NCBI GenBank assembly: GCA_045837725.1
Contig: JBEWZL010000220.1
Location: 1-64,000, forward strand
Reading direction: 5' to 3'
Origin: Vermamoeba vermiformis
Lineage: Eukaryota
DNA: 64,000 nucleotides
Both the position numbers and the translations under genes were made by a program. Below are positions 1 to 31,797 of this stretch, one piece after another (position 1 is the stretch's first letter; every line of letters begins with the position of its first letter). Below the pieces are notes generated by a model that was not told the origin of the DNA, did not search any database, and was given only the letters and a program-made list of their open reading frames with translations.

Positions 1-630
1 ACAATAACACGACGGACGTTTGGGCCCTACTGTGTTGTTGACTACGTTAAGGTTAATTAGAATGAAACAAACGTGGAAAATAATTTCTGTGACACAAGCA
101 CGTGGCGGTCACGTGCTTTTCTAAAATTAGATCGGAGCAAAATTCGAGCTTTTACACGACCAAATTGCAGCTAGCAGCACAAGGTAAGTGCTATTATAGT
201 CCGCTGAAACGGTGGACGCGTTCGCTCATTCGTGAACGTTAATTTCCCGTTTGAAAAACGGATTTTAATCCGCCCACCCGTGGATTAAAATTTAGTGGCG
301 CCATTCTCATTCGAATGAGCACTAAAAAATTAAATAATTACTACTATGTTAATGGAAAGACTAGGTGCACAACAAACCAAAAATTGCGCAATAACGATCT
401 TATCGCGCGTAAGTACACATGAATTATTCTCGATTTCAGTTATAGCACACAGCCGTATTATAACTTTATTTTACTAATATTTGTTAATTTTATTAAATTA
501 AATTAACTATTCGAGATCTGTGATTTCGTACACCCTTAAGCACGTTCAAACCACGAGCAATTGACAGGCGGTGTTGCTCGAAGTACGCGGGGTCAAGCAC
601 GGGGCAGGCAAATTGAATTTTTTTTTAAAT

Positions 631-689
631 TAGCAATAATTAGTTAAATTATTGTATGGTAGCAATAATTAGTTAAATTACTGTACGGC
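631..689. repeat. 29-bp direct tandem duplication upstream of the NEIL1-like gene
   Basis: tagcaataattagttaaatta(t/c)tgta(t/c)gg occurs twice back to back. Confidence 0.85.
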
Positions 690-743
690 TACAATAGAAA
701 ATCTAACAAGAGTTTTATTTAGGCTGTGAAGTAGTTTTACAAT

Positions 744-2115
744 ATGCTCGAGTACACGGACTGCGTTTCGTTGCAACAATGGCTAGAAAAGTCGATAAAA
801 TTAGAAGAATTTTGCGAAATTAAACCTACTCTTGTACAGCAAGTAAAATTAACTGTACAAACTGTATGCGGTAATAAAAAATTGAAAAACATGTATAATT
901 GACAATTTGTAGGTAAAAACACGGGGGAGAGAGCTTGGTATCGTGTTCAATGAGGGAATGGCATTGCGATTGTGTATTTCTAAGGGCAGTTATTTGGTTT
1001 TTGCTGCTCATGACAGTGTGGCACAGGCTGTGGTAGAGCAAGCCTCTTTAACAATGAAAACGGTTACTGGCAACACTCTATTGTTGGTGGATCAAGGGGT
1101 TGGCAGATCTGTGGTGGTCTTTCAGCCTGAACTGGTGTGGGATGTTTATGGCCCTGACATCCTCTTAGAATCAGCTCTATTTACCGCAAACCTTACAACT
1201 GTCTTGTCAACTCAAAGTGATTACTTGCGACAAATCACTTTGTTTGAGGCTCTGCTGGATCCTTGCTTATTTAATGGTTTTGGTCCGTTGCTCGTCAATG
1301 AGATTCTTCAACGGCTATATTATTATTTCGGTAATCACCAGATTTGCAGTATAAAAAAGACTCATATCTTTTATAGAAATACGTCCATTCATCAATGCTG
1401 GACAGTTTTTAAAGCATGATCACAACCGCAACCTTCTTCAACGCATGAGCACTGAATTTATTGGTCAGTTTTTACATATGTCATCCATGGCACTGAACTG
1501 TGTTGATTTCATGGACTTCGGATGGCTTGATTTAAGATCTGTGTTGCTGTTTTCATTTCGGCAACAAGCTTGTCGCGAAACAACAGTAAGCTGGTACAGT
1601 GTTACTTTGGTCTCTCAGAAAGAAGAAATTTGTTATTCAACATGCGAGTCTGTTGATTTGCCGCAAAATTGGCGTAAAATGGCCACAGTTCTCCAAGGGC
1701 CAGGACTATCTCATTACTTTGCTTGGCAAAAGGTTAGTATGATGTCCATCTCTGTAGCTTTGCTAATTGTACTAGTCTGAGGCAAGTCATTCCAAAAGAA
1801 AGGCGTTATCAACTAGCGAGATGCGTGTCAAAAAGCCACGCAACCACCAGTCTGCTGCACCAAAGAGAGAATCTGAAGATGTTGATACAATGTTTGTTCC
1901 ATATTGTGATGTTCTCTGCAAGTATGTGTTATAATCCAATTTGATATCAATTTCTAATGTTTAATAGCGTTACTTTTCCTGATTATTCTGATGACTGCAC
2001 TGAAAGCGAAGATGAGAGCTCAGCCAACGACAAAGAGGTTGCAAGATTAAAACGTAGATTTAACAAAAAGTGTCGTAGGATTGCAAACAAATTCAAACAC
2101 AAAATAAAATTGTAA
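744..2115 (+). CDS. NEIL1/Fpg-Nei-like DNA glycosylase-fold protein, probably catalytically altered (395 aa, 5 exons)
   Basis: Exons 744-863, 913-1330, 1377-1732, 1776-1921 and 1968-2115 join in frame over four 43-49 nt GT-AG introns. Motifs MLE (cf. MPE), RGREL (cf. RGKEL) and H2TH GPDILLE...LFEALLDPCLFNGFGPLLVNEILQRL..EIRPF (cf. NEIL1 GPCVLQE...ICEALLDQRFFNGIGNYLRAEILYRLKIPPF). Basic C-terminal tail. Confidence 0.75.
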
Positions 2116-2149
2116 CTCTTCACTCAATTGTTGCACTGATGTATTGACC

Positions 2150-3245
2150 TTTGAGGTTGTAGCTTTTAGGGTAACAACCTGAAACGTTGTTGCCTTGAAG
2201 GTAACGACCTCCCTGGGTTTGGACGTTGTCACTTTGAAGGTAACGACCTCTGACGTTGTCGCCTTGAGGGTAATGACCTCTGACGTCGTCACCTTGAAGG
2301 TAACGACCTCTCACGTTGTCGCCTTGAAGGTAACGACCTCCCTGACACTGGACATTGTCGCCTTGAGGGTAACGACCTACCTTGCTTTGGACATTGTCAC
2401 CTTGAGGGTAATGACCTCTGACGTCGTCGCCTTGAAGGTAACGACCTCTCACGTTGTCACCTTGAAGGTAACGACCTCCCACGTCGTCGCCTTGAAGGTA
2501 ACGACCTCTCACATTGTTGCCTTGAAGGTAACGACCTCCCTGACTTTGGATGTCGTCGACTTGAAGGTAGCGACCTCTGACGTTGTTGCCTTGAAGGTAA
2601 CGACCTCTGACATCGTTGCCTTGAAGGTGCCGACATACCTGACTTTGGACGTTGTCACCTTGAGGGTAACAACCTGTGACGTTGTCGCCTTGAAGGTAAC
2701 GACCTCTCATGTTGTCGCCTTGAAGGTAACGACCTCCCTGACTTTGGACGTTGTCGCCTTGAGGGTAACGACCTACCTTGCTTTGGACATTGTCACCTTG
2801 AGGGTAATGACCTCTGACGTAGTCGCCTTGAAGGTAACGACCTCTGACGTTGTCGACTTGAAGGTAACGACCTCTGACGTTGTCGCCTTGAGGGTAACAA
2901 CCTCCAACGTTGTCGCCTTGAAGGTAACGACCTACCTAACTTTGGATGTTGTCGCCTTGAGGGTAACGACCTCCCTGACACTGGACGTCGTCGCCTTGAA
3001 GGTAACGACCTCTCACGTTGTCGCCTTGAGGGTAACGACCTCCCTGACACTGGATGTTGTCACCTTGAGGGTAACGACCTCCCTGACACTGGACGTTGTC
3101 GCCTTGAAGGTAACGACCTCCCTGACACTGGACGTTGTCACCTTGAGGGTAACGACCTCCCTGACATTGGACGTTGTCACCTTGAAGGTAACAACCTGCC
3201 TGACTTTAAACGTCTTCACCTTGAAGGTAACGACCTCTGGTGTTG
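2150..3245. repeat. Minisatellite of 30-bp (gccttgaaggtaacgacctctgacgttgtc) and 39-bp variant units
   Basis: Roughly 30 tandem units, both lengths multiples of 3. The + frame ([10 protein letters not shown])n is open 2195-3328. Variants are mostly CG>TG/CA. Confidence 0.95.
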
Positions 3246-3260
3246 TCCAGAGGATATTTC

Positions 3261-5079
3261 ATGCGTTGGCCATTCGACTTAGTATTTTTTCCAAAACCCA
3301 AACGTCCGTCAACCCCAAGTATATATAAAATTTGCTTTTTGGATGACTAATTTAATTACTCGAGTAAGAGTGGAAGAGCAAAAGTAACTCACCAATAGCT
3401 GCAAACTTGCACATATCCAAGTTGCTGCCCAACTCTGTTCAGCCCATACCTGAATTAGTTGGTCAACTTAACGACTTGCAGACTGTTTGCAGGAATATTG
3501 ACGGTGGCAGTGCCTGTGTTGTCACTATTGATGTGCCCGACAAGCTTGGAAATTGGGAACTCTTTCTTGAGTCATACGATGGAGGGTTGGCAAGGCTATT
3601 AAATTTGTCAAAAACAACAACTGTTGGATAAAGCAAGAGGCTGTAGAGAATTGGTCAGTTGAGTGGTGGAGTGCTGTAAGTACACAAAATCTTCTTATTC
3701 ACTTTTAATTATTTTGTAGTGGTATAACGAGTATCGTGATGTAGTAGATAAAACTGAAGCCTACTATTTGCTTGATGTTCCAATCCATGCAAATCACAGC
3801 AACCTTCTTCGACAAAAGAATCCCTTGATAGATTTATTTTCACAGGGCAGTCGGTTTTGCTTCGCCCAATATGTCAAAAGGTATGTGCTAAACTTGGTCC
3901 TTTCATTTCTAATTGATTTACAAGCTTTTCTGAGAATATTCCAATACCAGATCTGTCTTACAAGGCTTTTATAGCACCTGCATGGGGGCAAGTAATGACC
4001 TATCCTCACAAGGATGGGCATGGAACACAATTGTCCGTTCATTGTTGTGTTATGGGCTCTGGGTACAATTTAGTTCATTGTTGGCCTGTATTAAACACCG
4101 GTGAGGTAAGTGCTATTTCATTGCTTTTATCGTGAAACAACTCTCAGTAATATTAGGAAGATGATTTTCGAACTACATTGAAAATACCTCCTCTGGGTAG
4201 CAAACAACAGGTGGCACATGATATTGCTTACCCCGAAGGTGTCGATGACAGTACATCAACTTGGAGCGTTGAGCTAGAACAAGAGCTTCAAAAAAAGGGA
4301 ATCAACAGCCCACAAGTGATTACACTGTCCCCTGGGCAAGCCATCATCTTGCCTCCAAATCAGTACCACTGTTTCAAAAAAATTCACCACCCCGGCGCTA
4401 CAGTGCCATTAGTCGGCGTGGCATGTGATTGTGCTTACATTGGATCTACGCCAGAAGCTTTCGTGCACAACTATACATCAATGAAGGTACAAATTACTCA
4501 ACTGATATCGTGTCTAATCAGAATCAACTAGGGTCTTCAAAATTTGCACCATTGGAATGATCATGTCTATTGCATATTAGAACTTGGCCTTTTCTGTCTT
4601 TTTCAGTTGCTAGTTGACACAAGTCCCTTTGAGCAACGTCACGTTCCGCGCTCATGCTCAGGGTGCCTACAACTTGTTTGTTGTGTGGGTGGAGGCTGAA
4701 GTAAAGGCTGAAGCAGCCATCAAAGAACTACTAGGTGTGCAGCGATGTTGAGCTAATTGAAGAATTTGATCTGGACCTCGTTTGCTCAAAGTGCAAATTA
4801 CCATTGGTCAATCTCTTTTGCCAGAAAGAGAAGAACACCTATTGCATCAAATGCGTTAAAAGAAAGACTGATTATTCCACTAAGTGCAGATTTAAAACTC
4901 CAAAGATGCTCCAAAAGCTTTTGAATGCAGTAAGCAGCAAACTTGATCCAGTGATGTCAAACCCACCATCTGTCAAAGCTCCGCTTCCACTCAATCCAGG
5001 TATGATTTTATTCTATTTGATCAGCGTCCCTGCATTGATGCTACTGTTATGTCAACCAAAATTTGCAAAATTGTCTTGA
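3261..5079 (+). pseudogene. JmjC-domain 2OG/Fe dioxygenase with C-terminal Cys4 zinc finger (KDM-like), frameshifted
   Basis: Spliced reading YYLLDVP...VMTYPHKDGHG (HxD at 4007-4015)...VITLSPGQAIILPPNQYHCFKK (distal His 4367) and CSKC...YCIKC. In-frame introns 3881-3924 and 4106-4156. Frame breaks near 3610, 4650 and 4740. The 5' end is uncertain. Confidence 0.7.
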
Positions 5080-5546
5080 CACTACAAAAAGTAAACAAGC
5101 TATTTATGTATTTTCTTTTATTTCTCTTTGATTTTTCAATCTATCTTAGCAAAGATGATCATCTATTAGCAAAGAGTGTAATCAAAGAGAGAGTTTTTGC
5201 AAATCCACAGTTTATGTATCCACACAAGTTTACATCCTTGCTCTTGATGTAATCACCAAAGATTTGCTTTTTTGTAGGACACCTCCTTGCTTTGATTTAG
5301 GCTTGTGGCCCTAGCAGTGTTGGTGCTAACCCATTTTGATAGAGCTAAATTGTGCACAAAGTTAGTCTGCAGTTCTCCATCAGTGTGCTCAATTACTAAC
5401 ATAATTAGTTCCTGACATTCAGGCTTCAGTACAGGATCTGCCAGTACAAGAGCCTCCTGTACAACACAACAACCTAGTACAAACACTCAAATCATGTTAT
5501 TTTCAAGTCATTCCTTTCTCTGGTAAGTCTTTTCATCAACCCTCTG

Positions 5547-5822
5547 TTGTTGCACAACCTGTTAATGGATCTGTCAATCATTCAACTGCTAGATGTCTCT
5601 ATTAAATCTTTCAAACACCATTATAGGGCAATTCATGACAGATGGAGGGCCAATAAAACATTGTTCCAAAGCCCAACCAAAAAATTTGTGGCAAATTGGA
5701 TTGTTGCAGCATGGAATCACATTGACTTGAATATAGTTAAAAAGAGCTTTAAGGTCTGTGGTATATCAAATGACCTCAATGGAAGAGAAGAAAATGAAGT
5801 GGCTGGCAAAAGAAACAGTTAA
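5547..5822 (+). mobile_element. pogo/Tigger-type (DDE_1) transposase C-terminal fragment, degenerate
   Basis: IQLLDVSIKSFK...W...VANWIVAAWNHIDLNIVKKSFKVCGISNDLNGREEN matches the pogo pattern LQPLDV..NKPFK...WV..AW..I....I.KSF..CGIS..LDG.ED. No upstream transposase ORF or TIR found. Confidence 0.8.
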
Positions 5823-10804: not shown

Positions 10805-13800
10805 ATGGGCAAAACACCAACCCCTTCTCGCAAGACCAAGATTATCTTGATCTGCTGCGCTGCTGGCTTTGTTGCTGCAGCGGCTGCCGTTCTTCTAGGA
10901 GTTTTGCTTACACTTCCTAAACAAACCGAACAGGCTGTTAGTAAGTAAACCTCACTACCGTACCAAAAGTGAGGTAATTACTCCGTAATTAATTGTTTTT
11001 CAACGATCTGTTCTGTTGTCACCTGCCAAATCCGAAACTGACACTTTATTTGTTTAGACTATTTACCACAAACCAATAAGGGCGAATTCCTCGTCGCTGA
11101 ACTTGTTAACACTAAACGTCCCAACGGCCAACCTTTAATCATCGCACGTAGCTATGATGGGTATCCGTGGGAACCTGTCCCGGATTTGGACAACGCTCCG
11201 ACTCCAATTACGTGTGACGACCAGAACCGTTGCACTATGGAAGTCGACGAAGAGTACACTACTCGCTCCATTGATGTGCCACAAGAGCTCAAGGACTTGT
11301 CGCCTATGCATCTGGCTGCTCGCCTTCACATGCAAGCTACTTTTGGTGCTGACAAGGATACGTTGCTACAAACTTCCAGTGCTTATGGCGTCGACTATGG
11401 ACTTTGGGTTCTCGATCAGATGCGCATTACTCCCACTCTTACACGCTCTTACTATCGCGAACGCGCCAACGCACGACCCGGCCAATTTGACGTTGGCCAA
11501 GTGACCAAACCTTGTGACCTTGGCTCTCGTTGGCACAGATATGCCTTCGAGTCACGCGATAAGGGCAAGGACATTGTGATCACCATAGACACCACCAAAC
11601 AGCGTATTGTCTTGAGCATCGACGGCGCTCCACGCACTGAAGTGACTTCAATCCTCAACCAAGCCTACCCTGCTACTAATGTGACCTTCCCTTTAACTTT
11701 GCGCCTCTGCTCAGTCAACGAAGAAATCGGTGGCTCCATGACTCTGACCAATCTCACGAGCAGTACTACTTGCAACGTCGCCATGAAGAACCCTACCATC
11801 GAGTTCGTCAGCAACTCAGCCGTGCAAACTTTGGGTGATAATGACGCTCTTTTGGTTCCTGTCTTCGGTGCTCGCGCTGGTTCCTTCGTGCTCAAGTCAC
11901 GCAGTGTGCCGTGCACTAACGTCACTGACGTTGCCGGCAACAACTTCATTCGCCAAGGCAACAGCACTTATCGATTCGACAAGCGTGTTCGCTTCTTGGC
12001 CAACACCATTGAAGATCCCTCCGTCGTTGAGGCTGCTTTCTCCGGTCAATGCCCTGTCATTGCCAAGTCCTATCAAAATCGTGACCAATGCGTCCGACGT
12101 GCCTCTTGCGGTTCCGCCGTGTCATTCAAGTCCGCCACTTTCACTCTCACTCAAAGCATTCTTCGCTCATGGTACACAAAGAGCCGTCGCTACGTCTACT
12201 ACGTCACCGACTTGAGACTGGAAGAACCTTTCAATATTTCTCCTTGCACTAGCCGCGCCTCTCGCTGGTTAAAGCTCAACTCTGGTGCTTGCGCTTCACC
12301 CACAGCATTGGATGCAACTACTCGCGCTACCATTGCTGCTGCTCTGAGCAGTTCTGCGGACACTAATCCTTACGTCCGCGACATCACCTTGTCCGGTGCT
12401 GGCTGCACTGCTTCTGTTGACACAATTGGTGCCATAATCGACGCTGGTGGTGCTTGCTACCAACACGTGCACCCTGATTACTACAGTGTTCGCGACTTCA
12501 CCCGCTGGGTTGACATTCACGACGGTAATGCACAGGCTATGCAGGGTGGCAAGTAAGTTGAAGTCATGGACAATTAATTGTTCAGCATTAATTAACGTTT
12601 ATAATTAAACAGGCCTAATCCCATCGCCAACTTTGCTCAAATGGGTCAGGTCAATATTAACTTCCCGGCCTCGCACCCAATGACTCGCTGGGCTGATCGA
12701 CGTGGTTACATCCCAGCTGTCGGTCGCTACGGAGACAGCGTTGACTTCCAAAACTTGAATATCGAACTTCAAACCGAAGAAATCGCAGCGATTGTTGGCG
12801 CTTTGCGTGTTAACTCCGATAAGGATGGCTTCGAAGCTTGCGGCTCTCCTGGCGAAGTCAGCACCTCACCTGAGCTTGGTTACCACTACTCGGTCTCAAA
12901 CTGGAACAACACTGCCGCTATCACCGAAGCTCTTGAGTGGCCCTTGCCTGCTTACAACGATCATCGCTTTGTCCTCGAAAACGTTCACTTGAAGGCCTAC
13001 GATCAACTCCGTCAACGCGTCGCCTGGAGTCTTTCCAACATTATCGTCATTGCTTCTCAAGACATTACAATGGATGACTATACCGACGCCTGGACCTCTT
13101 TCTACGACATCTTTATTCGCAACGCTTTTGGCAACTACAAGGACATTATGCGCGATGTGTCGTACCACCCTCTTATGGGTACTTACCTCAGCTACCGTGG
13201 AAACAGAGCCTATGTCGTTGCAAACACTTATCCCGACGAGAACTACGCTCGTGAAATTATGCAACTCTTCAGCATTGGTCTCTGGCGATTGAACGACGAC
13301 GGTACTCAACAACTCGACAGCGATGGTCAACCGTTGGAAACCTACACTAACGCTGATATCATGGACTTTGCTCGTGTTTGGACAGGCTTTGACCGTCAAC
13401 TCTTCCGCAGCAACTTGCCTACAGTCTACTCGATCTTCGGCTCTAACCAGAACATCATCGACAACATGCAAATTAGACCTCAATTCCGTGATCGTATGCC
13501 CAAAGCTAAGCTCGATGACGGATATCTCGGCGACACTTATCCTCTTTGTGATGACTTGCCCGCTCAAGCTTTCTTGCGCGAGGGTGCTCGCTACGAATAC
13601 ACTGGTCCTTCTTCAGTTGAAGGTGACACCATTGATGCGCAGAATGTTTCTCTTATTGGTAACCGTGGTCGTTTCACGCCGCCAACCACCTCAGCACTCT
13701 ACCAAGCTCTTTGCGCTCCTTCCGCCGAGAAGAACGGTGCTTGCACATTCCCTCTCCGCGTAACTCTCGATAAGAACTTGCCGTGCACCGGTGAACAAGA

Positions 13801-16800
13801 ATGCAATGCTCAACGCGTTCTCGCCGTCAAAATCTACGATCCTGTTGCCAATTTGACTAGATACTACGCTTACTACGGCATTCCTTGCGTGCGATTGACT
13901 CTGTTCGATACTGGTAATGTCATCAGACGTGGCAGCTCTCGTCCTCAATGCGCAGATCCCTCTACTCGTGTTGGCTCTCCTGTTTGCTGCAAAGCAACCA
14001 ATCCTACCGTCGCTGCTTCGAACTTTACATCGGAGTGCTTGTTCGCCAACGAAGTGACTGACTACGCTACCAACAAGCAGCGCTGCGAGGCAATGGGACT
14101 CACTACCTGCTCTGCATTGACAAGCTATCCTGTATGGGCTATCACCTGCGCACAGGACGTTTTCATGTGGACAAATCTTACTTGCTCCGTTCAAGTCCAA
14201 GTCTACCACACCGGTCAAGTTGGTATCGTTGATCCACTCAGTGCGAGCTACTTAAAACTCCTCCGAGCCAACTCAAGCAACGTCTTCCGTGTTCGCTGGC
14301 AAGACGGCTCTTTCCCTGCCACCAATGACGCCGGCGTTTGCCCTGACGACTGCACTGCACTCCCCACTCCTGAAGGTGACACTTGCTTGTGCAACGTCAC
14401 TGTCAGCACCTCCACTTTGTACGGTCAACTCTCTGACTTGAACTCGATCAACGCTGACGACGCTGTCAACACCATCGCACGACAGGCTTTCATCGGTGCT
14501 GCCAAGCCTGAGCTGTACGATGACGGCACTTACACAAAGTGTACCAACGATGAGTGCAACCGATTGTCCAATGTTGCTGTCTGGTTCCACAAAGACGACA
14601 ACGGTCTTGGTCAACGCACCATCTTTGCATTGCCTCCCTTCCGTGCCGGCGGTCGCGCTCGCTACTTGTTGAACCGCGTCTCTGTTGTTCACGTTGCCAA
14701 CTCGTTCTCATTCCGCAATCCTCCTCACTTCACTCCTCTTCTCGGAGAACTCACTGATTACACTCGCGATTGGAATTCTGACGCCTTGTGGACACGCAAA
14801 GCGGAATACGAAGTTGAAGCCTTGTTGGAGCACCTCTTTGAACACGACAACACTGCTGTGTTCATCGCCTACCGTCTCATTCAACACATGGTCACTTCCA
14901 ACCCTTCACCTCGCTACATGCGATCTGTTGTCCAAGCTTTCCGCACTGGTTCTTATGGCAGCGTCCCCTTCTCCGGCAACTATGGTGATATGGGAGCCAC
15001 AATCTACGCTATTTTGATGGACCAAGAGGCTCGCTCTCCCATCATTGAAGCCGATCCTACCTACGGCATGTTGCGCGATCCTTTGCTTAAGATCTACCAC
15101 TTGATGCGCGCTCTGGACTACAACTCGCCTAAGGGTCGTGAAGTTGCTTTGTGGGACATGGACAACCGCATTGGTGTCGAACCTTTCTCATCCCCCACTG
15201 TATTCAACTTCTACTTGCCCGAATACAGACCTGCTGGTGTCATCGGACAGGCTGGTCTCGTCGGCCCTGCAGTGCAATTAGCCACCACTCCCAATATCGT
15301 TGGCTTCATCAACGGTATCACCTCGCTCATCGACAACGGTCTCACCTCATGCGACAGCGGCTTTGCTGTCAGCAACAACTGGGGAGGACGTACTTGCGTC
15401 ACCACCGGCCCTCATGCTACTGCTGATGGTACTCTTACTTACATTCCTCCTGCTGATGCCTCGACCTCTGACATTGTCGACGAACTCAATCTGTTGCTCA
15501 CTGCTGGTCGTCTCAACCAACACACCCGCGAGATGCTTGTTCGTGAATACGACAACATTGCTACTAACGCTACCTACGCTCCCGCTGCTCTCAGACACAT
15601 GCTCAAGCTTCTCGTGTCCAGCTCTGAGTTCCAGACTTCGAGCTTCAACTTGTTGACTCAAACAGAGCGTTCAGTACCCACTGGCGTGGCAGGACAAGGC
15701 CGCCGCTTCAAGGCTATTGTAGTTATCTTCGAATACGGTGGTTGCGACAGTTTCAATGTGCTCATTCCTCACTCGAACTGCCCTACTAAGGACATGTACG
15801 CTGAGTACGCCGCTGTGCGCACTGACGCCGCCTTGAAAAAGGAAGACGTTTTACAGATCTCCTCCCCTGCCGGTACTCAAGTTTGCAACACATTCGGTGT
15901 GCACCCAGCCATGCCCAGATTGCAGCAGCTGTACACCGCTGGTGACGCTCTCTTTGCTACCAATGTTGGTGCCATGGTTGCTCCAGTTACCAAGGACGAA
16001 CTCAACAAGGGTACTGCTCGCGTTCCTCCTTCACTCTACGCCCACAACATTATGCAACGTAACGTGCAGAACGTGTACGCTCAGTACATCTCTGCCGATG
16101 GTGTTCTCGGTCGTATTTGCGATGCTCTTCAAGAGACCGACCAGCCTTACGCAGCCGCCGTGTTCAGTCTTGGTGGCAACGTTAAGATGACTCAAGGCTC
16201 AATCCCATCTGACTACATCTCTCCTTCCACTGGTGTCGTTAGAGTTCGTGGTTTGAACAAGATTGGCAGTGCGTTGAGCAACATCACCGAGTTCACTTCC
16301 AACTCCGTCTTCGCTGAGACCTACGCCGACACGTTGTTCAACTCCGTGCGCAAGACCGAGTCTCTCGGAGGACTTCTCAATTCCACTCAGCTGAGCACCA
16401 ACTTCACCAAGTCCGCTCTCGATCAACAGATGATTCAAGTCGCCAAGTTGATCAAGGCTTTGCCCGATGCCACTGGTGTTGAGCGCGCCGTCTTCTTCAC
16501 TCAAACTGGAGGTTTCGACACTCACAACACCTTCAACTTGTCCCCCATGTTAGGCACCGTCGACACTGCTCTCGGCAACTTCGCTGATGAGATGAAGGCC
16601 CAAGGCAGATGGGACGATGTTGTGGTCATCACCGTGTCTGACTTTGCTCGTACTCTCACCAGCAACGGTCAAGGTACCGATCACGCCTGGGGTGGCAATC
16701 ATTTCGTCGCTGGTGGTAGTGTTAAGGGAGGCCAGATCTTGGGTACCTACCCCACTACCCTCACTGATGATGGCGATGTCATCCTCAGTCGTGGTCGTGT

Positions 16801-16945
16801 CATTCCTACCATGCCCTTCGAAGCTTTGTGGAAGGGCATTTCTGAATGGTTCGGCGTTCCGGATGCAGAAATGGATAAAGTTTTGCCCAACATCAAGAAC
16901 TTCCCTGCCGAAAAGATCTACGGCAAGGCTCAAATGTTCAACTAA
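10805..16945 (+). CDS. Giant DUF1800-DUF1501 fusion protein with N-terminal membrane anchor (1987 aa)
   Basis: Exons 10805-10940, 11058-12552 and 12613-16945 are in frame. DUF1800 motifs AARLHMQATFG, DQLRQRVAWSLS, PDENYAREIMQLFSIGL, TSNPSP.Y, SPTVFNFY. DUF1501 motifs GGCDSFN, GGFDTH, SDFARTL..NG.GTDHAWGG. Confidence 0.9.
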
Positions 16946-27825: not shown

Positions 27826-30800
27826 ATGAATCCATACAACAGTAACTACGGATACGGCTATGCGCAGTCAAATATTCCCTACGGACAGCCTACAACTGGA
27901 ATTCCAGTCGCCACACCTTCAAGCGTGACTACAGGTACAGAACTCCTTTAACAAAGTAACCAGTATTTTTTTTTTGATGTAAATGATAATTATTTATTTG
28001 CCTGTGCTGTCGATTAGCAAAATAATAATTAGGAAAATAATTTAATATTTTCGTATTTTTACAATAATAGTATTGTTGTCCGGATAATAGTACGCTTTTC
28101 CATTACTACTAAGGCAATTCTCAATCACCACGCACTGACCTCTTATTTCCCGCAGTTGGAGGTGTCTCTTACACGTACAATTCCTACACCTCGCAATTGG
28201 AGCCCTTGACGCCGTCAATCGCGTCTTATCCCTACACAGCCACGCCCAGTACGATGACTGGCTCGTATCTGCCGCACGACACGCACACCTCATCATATGG
28301 CACGCATCACGATCCACTCAGTGCCTCGCACTTGTCGGGCTCATCGCTCTATCCCTCGACCTACGCGCCAACCACCACGTACGGCACGAGCACATCCACT
28401 TATCCGAGCACACCGTCCACGACCAGCTACACTACTCCTTCAGCGCCGTCGTATAATGCGCACACCAGTAGTTACGCGAACACGACGTCGAGTTACACCT
28501 CGCAGAACTATCCCAGCACCACATCCAGTTACGGCTCGAACACCACCTCCAACTACCCCACGACACCTTCGAGCTATTCGAACACCTCATATACACCGAG
28601 CTCATCCTCGACCTACACTCCTGCGAGCTCATCCACTTACACGCCCACGACCTCCACCTACTCGCGTAACACCTGGTACGTACACACCCACGCCCTCGTC
28701 CTCGACTTACACCCCCGCTGCTTCGTCCACGACGAGTTACACGCCGTCGAGTCCTTACGACACGAGCTACACGAGCAGCACTACGAACTACACGGCACCC
28801 ACTACGACCTATCAAGTCACCACGCACAGCGAGACCGCACAGAGTGGCGAGGCCGCACGTCAAGCAGAGCTGTTGAAGCTGATGGAAGAGAAGTTGCGAC
28901 AAGAACAAAAGCTGAAGCAAGACGAACTCGCAGCCAAAGAGCGACTGCTGGCCGAGAAAGAGCGGCAAATCAAAGAGCAAGAACAGCGCGCTGCTCAAGC
29001 CAAGCTCGCTGAAGAAGAGCGTGTCAAGCGCGAGCAGGCCCAAGAACAAGCACGTCGCGAGCAAGAGCGACTCGAACAAGAACGTGCTCGCGAACTGCGC
29101 GCCAAGCAGCAGGCTGAAGAGGAACAACGCGCCCGTGCCGCGAAACAACAAGAGGAAGAGCGACAACGCCGTGCGATGGACGAAGAGATTGCGCGCAAAC
29201 AACGTGAACTGCAAATCAGCGAGCAACAACAGCGCGAGTTGTTGAAGCAGAAAGAGGCAGAGCTGCAAGCACGTGCTCGACAGCTCGAAATTGAGGCACA
29301 ACAACGCGCTGCTGAACTCGCGCGCTTGGAGAAGTTGAAGCAGAGTGAGCGCGAGGCTGAAGAGGAACGAAAGCGCAAGGCAGCCGATGAGGAGCGCAAG
29401 AGACTGCAAGAGCTGCACTTGAAAGAGGCTGAATTGATGCGCAAAGAGACGCAGATCCTCGAACAAGACATGGCACGCAAAGAGGCGCTGTTGAAGCAAG
29501 AGATTGCCAAGAAAAAGCTCGACGAAGAGGCCAAGCGCCGCGAAGACGAATTGAATCGCAAAGAACAAGAGCGACTCGCCGAACTGGCGCGACGAGAGCG
29601 TGAAAAAATGGAAGAATTGGCGCGCAAAGAGAAAGAGCACATGGAAGAGTTGCAGCGCACGGAACAGACGCGCTTGCAACAGTTAGCGCAACAAGAACAA
29701 GCGCGCTTGGCGGAGTTGGAGCGCAAAGAGAAACAACGCCTCGAAGAACTGGCGCGCATTCAGCGTGAGTTGACTGAGAAAGAAGAGGCACTGAAAGCTG
29801 AAGAGAACAAGCGCCAAGACACGCTGCAACAGCTGCGCGTGCAGAGTCAGAAGGTGCAAGAAGAAGAGCGCAAGAAGCTGGCTGAGCTGCAGGAACGCGA
29901 GCAACAGCTGCGCACTCGCGAGACACAGTTGAACGATCAGCAAGTGAAGCAGAGTGCCAGCGCGCAGGACCGCGAGACACAGCTCAAAGTACAAGAACGC
30001 GCTTTGCAAGAGGAGCAGAAGAAGTTGGCTGAACTGCGCGCACAACAAGAAGAGCTGCGCAAGAAAGAGGCGCGTCTGATTGAAGAGCGTGCTGAGAGCG
30101 ACAAGAAGCGCGAGGCCTTGCTATTGGAGAAACAGCGCGTGGACGAGGAGAACAATCGCAAGAAGAGCAATGCTTCGGTCAAGTCCACGCCACGAGCTAC
30201 CAGCGATGAAAATGTCAAACTCAAGACGTGGCAAGAGCGCAGTGACAGTGCAGCAGTGGGTGTGTTGGAAGTGACCATTTATCGTGCGCGCGGACTGAAG
30301 CCACTCAACGGCTCGGGCAGCGATGCCTATGTCGCACTTTCAGTGACACGTGACGGCGAGAAGTCACGATTGGTGAAGACAGATGTCAAGTCCAAGACCG
30401 TCGAGCCTGAGTGGCTGTTCCAAGCTGTGATCAATGTCTACGAGCCCTACAACGAGGAGCTCGAACTGCGCGTGATGCAGCACTGGAAACTGGCCACGAA
30501 CGAGCTGTTGGGACAAAAGACCTGGCCCATCTCGTACTTCGAGACCTCTTACGACCCTGCCAAGAGCAATCCCTGGGTACCTCTCACTGGCACTGGCAAG
30601 CACGTGCAGGGCGAGTTGATGGTGAAGTTCAAGTACACCTCGCTCAAACAGGGCACAATCACTGGCCCCAAGAACTTTGAACACAAAGGTCACATTGGTC
30701 TGTCAGCGGACGGTGGCTTTGAAATCAGAAACATGCCCGCTGAATGGAAACAGCTCTTCAAAAAGGCAGGCATCACTCCGAATGAACTGCGCAATCCCGA

Positions 30801-31797
30801 GAACGCGCGTGTGATGATGGAGGTGAGTCGATGAATGAATTGTACGGAGGTGAGGGACAAGACTGACCGAGTCTATTTTTAGATCATTGCAGGTGTGTGT
30901 GATTCAGACCAAGTGCCCGCAACCCCACCCACAACGCCAGTGGTCGCACAACAAGCCCCGCCTCCACCTCAGCCGACACGTGTCGCCCCTCCAGTCCCAC
31001 CCAAACAAGTTCCCCCGCCACTGCCTCCTAAAAATCCCGTGCTCTCCCCCGAGGCACCTGTCAAACAGCCACCCAAAGTACCGCCGCCTCGTCCTGCAGC
31101 CAAAGTGCCTCCGACTGTTGTTGCGACACCTGTCACTGCTGTTAGTGTTCCCGTGACACCTGTCATTCCCGAGCCTGTCGTCGAGACAAGTGTCAATGTG
31201 CCACCTCAAGTGGTGCCAGTAGAACCCATCGTAGTGGTGACTGAGCAAGTGACACCTGTCATTCCCGAACCTGTCGTTGAGGCAGTAGTGACACCTGTCC
31301 AAGTCGGTGCTCCACCACCACCGCCCCTGCCACCACGTGTCGACGCACCCGCCCCACCACCCCCACCACCCATGGTCGCAGTGAGCAGTGACGGCAGCTC
31401 GTTGACGAATGAGTTGTTGGAGGGCAGCAAGAGACTCAAGTCGACACCTGTCATCGAGCGACCTCCGCAACAAGACTCGCGCTCCTCGTTGTTGGACCAG
31501 ATCCGTGCAGGCAAGCAGTTGAAGAAAGCATCTGACGGAGAACTGCCCAGTACGTATATGCTAGTCGTGTAGTGCGCTGAATGAATATTAATCGTGTTCT
31601 GCAGACATCAAAAACCTCTCGCAACAAGAGTCTGACAACTTGGCTGCAGTGCTCGCGAGGTACGTGAACACAACTAAATGCTCATATATAAGGGTGTCTA
31701 ACAATCATTCACCAGGGCTATGAACGCACGTCGAGTAGACATGAAGGCAGAAGAACACGTGGCTGAAGGCAGCGACAATTGGGACGACTGGGACTGA
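27826..31797 (+). CDS. WASP-family actin nucleation factor: S/T/Y-rich, coiled coil, C2, CRIB, poly-Pro, WH2-C-A (apparent frameshift ~28665)
   Basis: C2 (GVLEVTIYRARGL...SDAYV...KT.VKSKTVEPEW), CRIB (ITGPKNFEHKGHIG...NMPAEWKQLFKKAGI), WH2 (RSSLLDQIRAGKQLKK), central helix (LAAVLARAMNARR), acidic end DNWDDWD*. Confidence 0.88.

Follow-up and report, generated by a model that had tools for sequence, protein, structure and literature searches.

A candidate pseudo-glycosylase of NEIL1 ancestry at the 3′ end of a probable multicopy mobile element

Fpg/Nei proteins are known as repair enzymes, and NEIL1 uses Pro2, Glu3 and a conserved Lys. Residue 2 needs to be exposed by methionine aminopeptidase (PMC10711445). 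NEIL1 fills the void with Met81, Arg118 and Phe120, and makes backbone contacts through Lys54, Arg133 and Arg277 (PMC10164570). The Asn of the H2TH motif, described as strictly conserved, makes a bond to the phosphate that lies 5′ of the lesion; a further, structural role against the H2TH helix has been assigned to Glu3 (10.1101/2020.02.28.970129). Among large eukaryotic elements, the giant repeats of Amoebidium are recombinase-rich, and the main text of the paper on them makes no mention of a glycosylase (PMC11244446). Our literature search, which covered titles and abstract openings and left subscription journals and supplements outside its coverage, returned nothing on NEIL1-like transposon cargo.

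Here, we analyse a NEIL1-like gene in a stretch of 64,000 nucleotides (the window) that forms the start of contig C220 in a 43-Mb eukaryotic assembly. An earlier note, made from the letters of this DNA, had described the gene as intact and spliced, with lyase chemistry lost or altered, and had suggested a DNA-binding or decoy role for its product.

Gene structure, fold and family

Five predicted exons together give a stop-free frame of 395 aa that begins M-L-E and ends with a TAA stop at 2113-2115. The gene and its probable leader comprise the following features.

184..722, plus strand: probable 5′ UTR containing candidate splice signals, namely two GTAAGT donors (184 and 409) and an acceptor TTTATTTAG (722), which both copy clades share
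744..863, plus strand: exon 1, aa 1-40, starting M-L-E-Y-T-D, with Leu2 (747-749) at the Pro2 position and Glu3 kept
864..912, plus strand: intron 1, 49 nt, GT-AG, at the same position in paralogs
913..1330, plus strand: exon 2, beta-sandwich and H2TH helix, with Arg46 (928-930) at NEIL1 Lys54 and Pro165 (1285-1287) at the H2TH Asn
1331..1376, plus strand: intron 2, 46 nt here, an in-frame 45 nt in the C86, C139 and C260 copies
1377..1732, plus strand: exon 3, helical domain and zincless-finger region, in which Glu replaces the finger Arg by alignment
1733..1775, plus strand: intron 3, GT-AG
1776..1921, plus strand: exon 4, low-complexity basic linker
1922..1967, plus strand: intron 4, GT-AG
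1968..2115, plus strand: exon 5, acidic TESE motif, then a basic helix

The four introns and the open frame agree with the earlier description: all four donor/acceptor pairs of the 395-aa model read GT/AG in each of six near copies, and introns 1 and 2 lie at identical positions in paralogs of 30-35% identity. An alternative donor at 843, which would give a 388-aa product, was rejected because the C86 and C139 copies read CT there. The ATG at 744, or a point immediately before it, is where the DNA of the two copy clades becomes similar again. The earlier note had allowed for a different first exon yielding MPE; at the sequence level no such upstream exon was found, the in-frame upstream splices that arise by chance differ between copies, and no ATG-CC lies upstream in any of the six. 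As the earlier note claimed, the 395-aa protein contains MLE, RGREL and FNGFGPLL, and its tail is first acidic and then rich in K/R.

Pfam returned no family for single exons or for the exon 2-3 frame, and a single-sequence PDB search reached NEIL1 at no better than E 0.65; a protein-language atlas pointed to Fpg/H2TH clusters at 0.91-0.94. A profile of eight paralog exon-2 pieces matched 15 PDB sequences, all of them NEIL1 (best E 2.8e-7), with the NEIL1 RGK falling on RGR and FNGIGNY on FNGFGPL; an exon-3 profile gave no relevant PDB match (best E 0.02). For structure prediction, exons 2-3 of the 92%-identical C86 copy, a single open frame without exon 1, were folded from a 71-row alignment (pLDDT 87); a single-sequence fold of pLDDT about 33 (33.5) was not used. 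The model's best structural match was human NEIL1 (Z 17.9, rmsd 2.1 A, 208 residues; Foldseek E 7e-8), and other Fpg/Nei structures, including NEIL3, NEIL2 and viral Nei/Fpg, scored lower (Z 12.0-15.6). Because the folding alignment contained NEIL1-like rows, which pull the model towards the NEIL1 fold, and the modelled piece lacked exon 1, we take the model as support for the fold and not for the active-site geometry. Read in this way, profile and predicted structure show a NEIL1-type fold and an ancestry in the Fpg/Nei superfamily, as the earlier note had proposed.

In a word-indexed search of longer proteins, the exon-2 profile retrieved no homolog. Among 1.84 billion representatives, the same profile gave 113 matches, of which the 13 best-ranked are pieces of this family the size of an exon, including some that come from this genome or from close strains; those that follow include full-length intronless relatives and ordinary NEIL1/Nei. 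Viral contigs held no relative, either by the exon-2 profile or by query P0014, and a BFVD fold search returned distant viral Fpg only (9-18% identity), leaving a viral origin unsupported here.

Exon 2 matches 14 places in the genome, six of them near copies (92-100% identity) and eight distant paralogs (30-35%). Two of the distant paralogs begin MPELPE or MPEIL and keep RGK; six have Ala-Glu directly after a splice acceptor. The acidic TESE and basic-helix tail recurs in five other terminal paralogs examined and is absent from the interior MPELPE paralog. In Ala-Glu paralogs (L049:7300-7350, L056:3950-3960, L027:780-790, L053:3115-3125), the acceptor falls inside the first codon (x before the junction, TG after it); the nearest donor gives TTG and a farther one ATG, and the start may be made by splicing. 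Intron 2 of the MPEIL paralog holds a 227-nt element (L046:1617-1843), an inverted, 98%-identical copy of which lies 1.4 kb away (L046:3224-3450).

In a tree of 51 rows (seven fragments, five with long branches), the family, with 29 rows, split from canonical NEIL1 at 100/99 support; the MLE, AE and MPEIL types form one subclade (96/91), and the branching order within it is unsupported. This wider, divergent NEIL1-like clade, some members of which still have MPE and RGK, had escaped the earlier note. The separate canonical host NEIL1 that it had proposed to search for lies on C258 (MPELPE, RGK, GIGNY, GRTI), and host Fpg on C294. The C258 gene is the host orthologue, and the multicopy window family falls outside the NEIL1 orthologues. 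The C258 gene (L077, C258:31541-33800) appears to run on into a WGR-like region of the kind found in PARPs. A second, intronless NEIL1-like gene (MPEYLE, GKW, PGVGNY) occurs in six near-identical copies (C66, C70, C112, C119, C173 and C234; e.g. L032:1501-2541). It adjoins a DUF7869 gene and a homeodomain-like frame as cargo of another repeated unit, and looks catalytically intact at Pro2, Glu3, Lys and Asn.

Catalytic and DNA-contact residues

The window protein has Leu2, Arg46 and Pro165 at the positions of NEIL1 Pro2, Lys54 and the H2TH Asn, respectively. Leu2 is shared by all six near copies. Glu3 is the sole invariant column among nine N-termini, three of which begin MPE, and this fixes Leu2 as the Pro2 position. 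The Arg that the earlier note saw in place of the Lys is present; it is no special exchange, as relatives have G, S, I, E or Q at this site, which makes the change drift at a released site. H2TH Gly-Asn reads Gly-Pro, and all 14 genomic family members, examined by alignment or through near identity, have lost the Asn. By alignment, the void-filling loops in exon 2 are degenerate and the equivalents of Met81, Arg118 and Phe120 lost, the Arg133 position is Tyr, and that of the finger Arg (Arg277) is Glu. Alignments differ by 1-2 residues on the equivalence of Met81, Phe120 and Arg277; the loops carry neither Met nor Arg-Phe. The core is net acidic, with 23 K+R vs 29 D+E; the corresponding counts are 40/36 for a NEIL1 orthologue and 35/28 for the NEIL1 of the host.

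Methionine aminopeptidase is not known to remove Met1 before Leu. Leu2 would thus keep Met1 in place, leaving no nucleophile at position 2 and consequently no glycosylase or lyase activity. Judged by its residues, the window protein probably lacks both, in keeping with the loss of lyase chemistry proposed earlier, and of the catalytic and DNA-contact residues of an active Fpg/Nei enzyme compared here, this NEIL1-fold protein retains Glu3.

Loss of the Pro alone is no proof of a dead enzyme, since P2G NEIL1 has residual activity via a primary amine (PMC10164570). An altered enzyme might persist if Glu3 supported a monofunctional glycosylase on an unusual base, or if the Met1 amine slowly trapped AP sites. 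The invariance of Glu3 would suit this explanation, as would a Met1-linked NEIL3-AP complex that has been seen, though called likely artefactual (PMC10711445). Moreover, the H2TH Asn is missing from wider-family members that keep MPE, and the clade may therefore hold DNA in another way. However, Pro2, Lys54, the void-filling triad and the phosphate contacts are lost together, Glu3 could be kept for its structural role, and the units read contained no intact base-modifying enzyme; we consider an altered enzyme improbable.

A non-catalytic DNA binder might occupy lesions, abasic sites or, at the element end, telomere-like DNA in single-stranded or structured form, and shield them from host glycosylases. 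Such a binder would be consistent with the retained fold, the conserved basic C-terminal helix and the telomere-like repeats at element ends. The Arg at the Lys54 site could still touch a phosphate, and NEIL2 and NEIL3 act despite lacking two void-filling residues (10.1101/2020.02.28.970129). Yet the residues that fill the void or touch phosphate are gone, including Arg133 and the finger Arg, and the core is net negative, which disfavours lesion-directed binding; the family-wide loss of the H2TH Asn and the drift at the Lys54 site point the same way. Lesion-specific DNA binding by the window protein is unlikely on these residues, and a DNA-binding function in the broader sense appears unlikely as well. 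Of the two roles suggested earlier, DNA binding is thus disfavoured, and the decoy is the one we carry forward as the leading reading.

The probable mobile element and selection on its cargo

The gene is followed by a tandem array and a sharp element end.

11..24, minus strand: 14-bp inverted copy of a subterminal motif (3297-3310)
2146..3239, no strand assigned: tandem array of 30/39-bp units, part of the element, with a length that varies between copies
3239..3331, plus strand: fixed 3′ end of the element, terminating in CCCCAAGTATATATAAAAT
3332..4950, plus strand: flank outside the element, a decayed, frameshifted cupin/JmjC-like and zinc-finger gene, single copy (cupin matches at E 0.003-0.09 only)

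Near copies align up to 3331 and then diverge at a single base, directly following CCCCAAGTATATATAAAAT, with unrelated flanks beyond in all copies. Five further loci hold just the last 75-450 nt of the element as 5′-truncated copies. Thirteen of the 14 family genes stand last, followed by a tandem repeat and then a TATATA-type element end, and this layout is shared by the distant paralogs. An identical 3′ breakpoint with unrelated flanks was found at 11 of 11 ends examined; ends of different families are nested, with 2-4 nt of microhomology in the two joints resolved. The window gene is very likely cargo of a multicopy mobile element, and its place as 3′-end cargo had been missed by the earlier note.

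Transposase, recombinase and reverse transcriptase were not seen within the window's unit, and the introns are host-like. Both observations would suit a family of subtelomeric host genes that spread through segmental duplication and not by way of a mobile element. Such an origin is nevertheless very unlikely in view of the identical 3′ breakpoint with unrelated flanks, the variable 5′ truncation and the nested, microhomologous ends. In addition, at one of two metagenomic loci retrieved a relative and a Mutator-like transposase lie tail-to-tail; the second locus is too short for a judgement. The former also contains a CXC-like cysteine cluster and an exonuclease-like remnant (L137:1400-3020).

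Neighbouring related units carry a recombinase-like gene (seven matches), and the MPELPE paralog (C190) lies in the interior of a unit with such a gene plus cargo. The gene is putatively a recombinase by its motifs; Pfam gave a sub-threshold E of 0.049 and nothing above threshold, PDB no match, and the atlas (0.85-0.86) pointed weakly to telomere resolvase and phage integrase. Tyrosine-recombinase-like genes with introns, an acidic tail and possibly a chromodomain lie on C190, C117, C183, C123, C228, C16 and C231 (e.g. L047:3-1777, L071:3745-6350). The units at C117, C183 and C123 start with TTAGGGTTAGGGTTATATTC, of which C228 has a variant, and those at C117 and C183 cut off neighbouring genes. 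Ala-Glu units (L049:2384-6597, L053:3934-7896, L056:4739-7586) share two genes, one of them F-box/LRR-like and the other uncharacterised and divergently transcribed; gene order around the MPELPE copy in C190 is similar by eye, and tblastx gave no link.

Among 55 RVT_1 matches in the genome, 11 loci were read and none was linked to window-type units; the 10 weak matches read, with frames of 543-590 aa, look like DIRS/Ngaro-type and are unrelated to these units. DIRS/Ngaro-like retroelements (L114-L123) form several families with gag, RT-RNase H and recombinase in long open frames, often at contig ends. Rfam on six loci gave no ribozyme or hammerhead and four sub-threshold low-complexity matches; RVT_1 and Rfam may miss divergent forms, and the 5′ parts of the element, like its mobilising enzyme, are absent from the assembly.

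Telomere-like repeats occur in several element ends. At two related loci, C78 and C84, the 5′ side is capped by true TTAGGG arrays, with none visible at the window's copy. C84 bears a decayed MPELPE-type copy. The contig stops 743 nt upstream of the window gene, and a search of the assembly for the upstream body or 5′ end of the element gave nothing beyond five contig starts, so that a subtelomeric position is reached by inference. At 11 of 11 element ends the 5′ side faces the nearer contig end; we rejected this as proof of telomeric location because breaks of the assembly inside long repeats would produce it too, and DIRS-like elements are likewise found at the ends of contigs. The element is probably telomere-associated.

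Between the copy clades, dN is 0.040 and dS 0.219, and the resulting dN/dS of about 0.18 shows that the MLE protein is kept under purifying selection and is not a chance frame, in agreement with the intact frame emphasised earlier. The signal extends to the 99%-identical C220 and C219 copies (9 synonymous vs 6 non-synonymous changes, p=0.001) and to C86 vs C139 (5 vs 0). Among the Ala-Glu paralogs, dS is saturated at pN 0.26-0.45. Five of the six near copies have an open frame; in C238, a G run carries a 1-nt deletion, perhaps an error of sequencing. Neither spliced RNA nor exon joints were seen in the four RNA runs searched out of nine, which yielded a single partial read and three contigs (150-220 nt), all unspliced. 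The runs contained 5-6% of the words at best and are uninformative on expression. A silent or decaying passenger, copied by the adjoining element 3′ end and with a merely historical selection signal, could be reconciled with the lack of spliced RNA, the C238 deletion and the decayed copy at C84. The low dN/dS even between near-identical copies and the splice sites kept in all six copies make a passenger highly improbable.

The decayed neighbour reported earlier is real and corresponds to the frameshifted gene at about 3332-4950, for which JmjC is a putative label based on motifs. Its 5′ side is cut by the element end, and a DDE_1 remnant follows (5478-5822). Farther along, the window contains a very large DUF1800 and DUF1501 gene (11042-16945), with domains mostly known from bacteria, and a WASP-like gene with C2, PBD and WH2 domains (28258-31572); to our knowledge, a C2 domain is unusual in WASP family proteins.

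A possible decoy function and comparison with known systems

On balance, we favour, with moderate confidence, an element-borne pseudo-glycosylase that acts as a protein scaffold or decoy towards host repair factors. The NEIL1-fold protein would be the 3′-terminal gene cargo of a large multicopy mobile element and, having no position-2 nucleophile, would perform no glycosylase or lyase chemistry. It would instead make protein contacts via the retained two-domain fold and via a conserved tail, in which an acidic TESE(D) motif precedes a basic helix and which may offer a kinase site and a nuclear signal. Through these contacts it might bind or titrate host base-excision or break-repair factors, and such titration would favour the element's joining to, or persistence at, chromosome ends. 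The weakest step, that the protein works through contacts with repair factors, is put forward tentatively. Bolder, and rather unlikely, is the proposal that a previously undescribed element class of a protist, giant, intron-bearing and telomere-associated, captured NEIL1 and turned its 3′-end copy into a dead anti-repair decoy, which would block or redirect host base-excision and break repair during end-joining while other units keep intact-looking copies.

A selected, catalytically stripped, element-borne version would show a non-enzymatic use of the Fpg/Nei fold and, if true, would point to manipulation of the host's base-excision repair by eukaryotic elements. The whole series of MPELPE/RGK, MPEIL/RGK, AE and MLE forms is found in one genome, beside the canonical host NEIL1, which makes a stepwise loss of catalysis directly testable; if the decoy reading is correct, this would be a eukaryotic transposon-encoded anti-repair pseudo-enzyme with graded forms, from MPE/RGK to dead, in a single genome.

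Like human NEIL1 (PDB 4NRV, 5ITR, 6LWA series), the window protein has a two-domain fold by prediction, an RG-x-EL strand, GP-x-x-L-x-E, an FNG H2TH loop, a zincless-type C-terminal domain, Glu3 and a long charged C-terminal tail. It differs in Pro2 to Leu, Lys54 to Arg and H2TH Asn to Pro, in the loss of the equivalents of Met81/Arg118/Phe120, Arg133 and Arg277, and in its identity of about 20-23%, its separate clade and its position as multicopy element cargo. NEIL3, with Val2, illustrates that residue 2 can differ, as it does in the window protein. NEIL3, NEIL2 and viral Nei/Fpg, in contrast to the window protein, keep a processed N-terminal nucleophile and the H2TH Asn, and NEIL2 and NEIL3 function although two void-filling residues are missing (10.1101/2020.02.28.970129).

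At the level of the element, the neighbouring units, with a recombinase-like gene and cargo, recall large tyrosine-recombinase elements such as Enterprise/Starship and the Amoebidium giant repeats (PMC11244446); unlike in those, no recombinase was seen in the window's own unit, and the cargo is intron-rich. The elements match no family that could be confirmed. Compared with Terminons and Athena telomeric Penelope-like elements, window-type units show no hammerhead match or reverse transcriptase, their 5′ parts being missing. The layout nevertheless resembles Terminons, a resemblance that does not by itself establish membership: going by their description (PMC6431247), both have a fixed 3′ end with telomere-like repeats, head-to-tail arrays and multi-gene cargo, and the 5′ truncation capped by telomeric repeats that is found in Terminons is seen here at C78 and C84.
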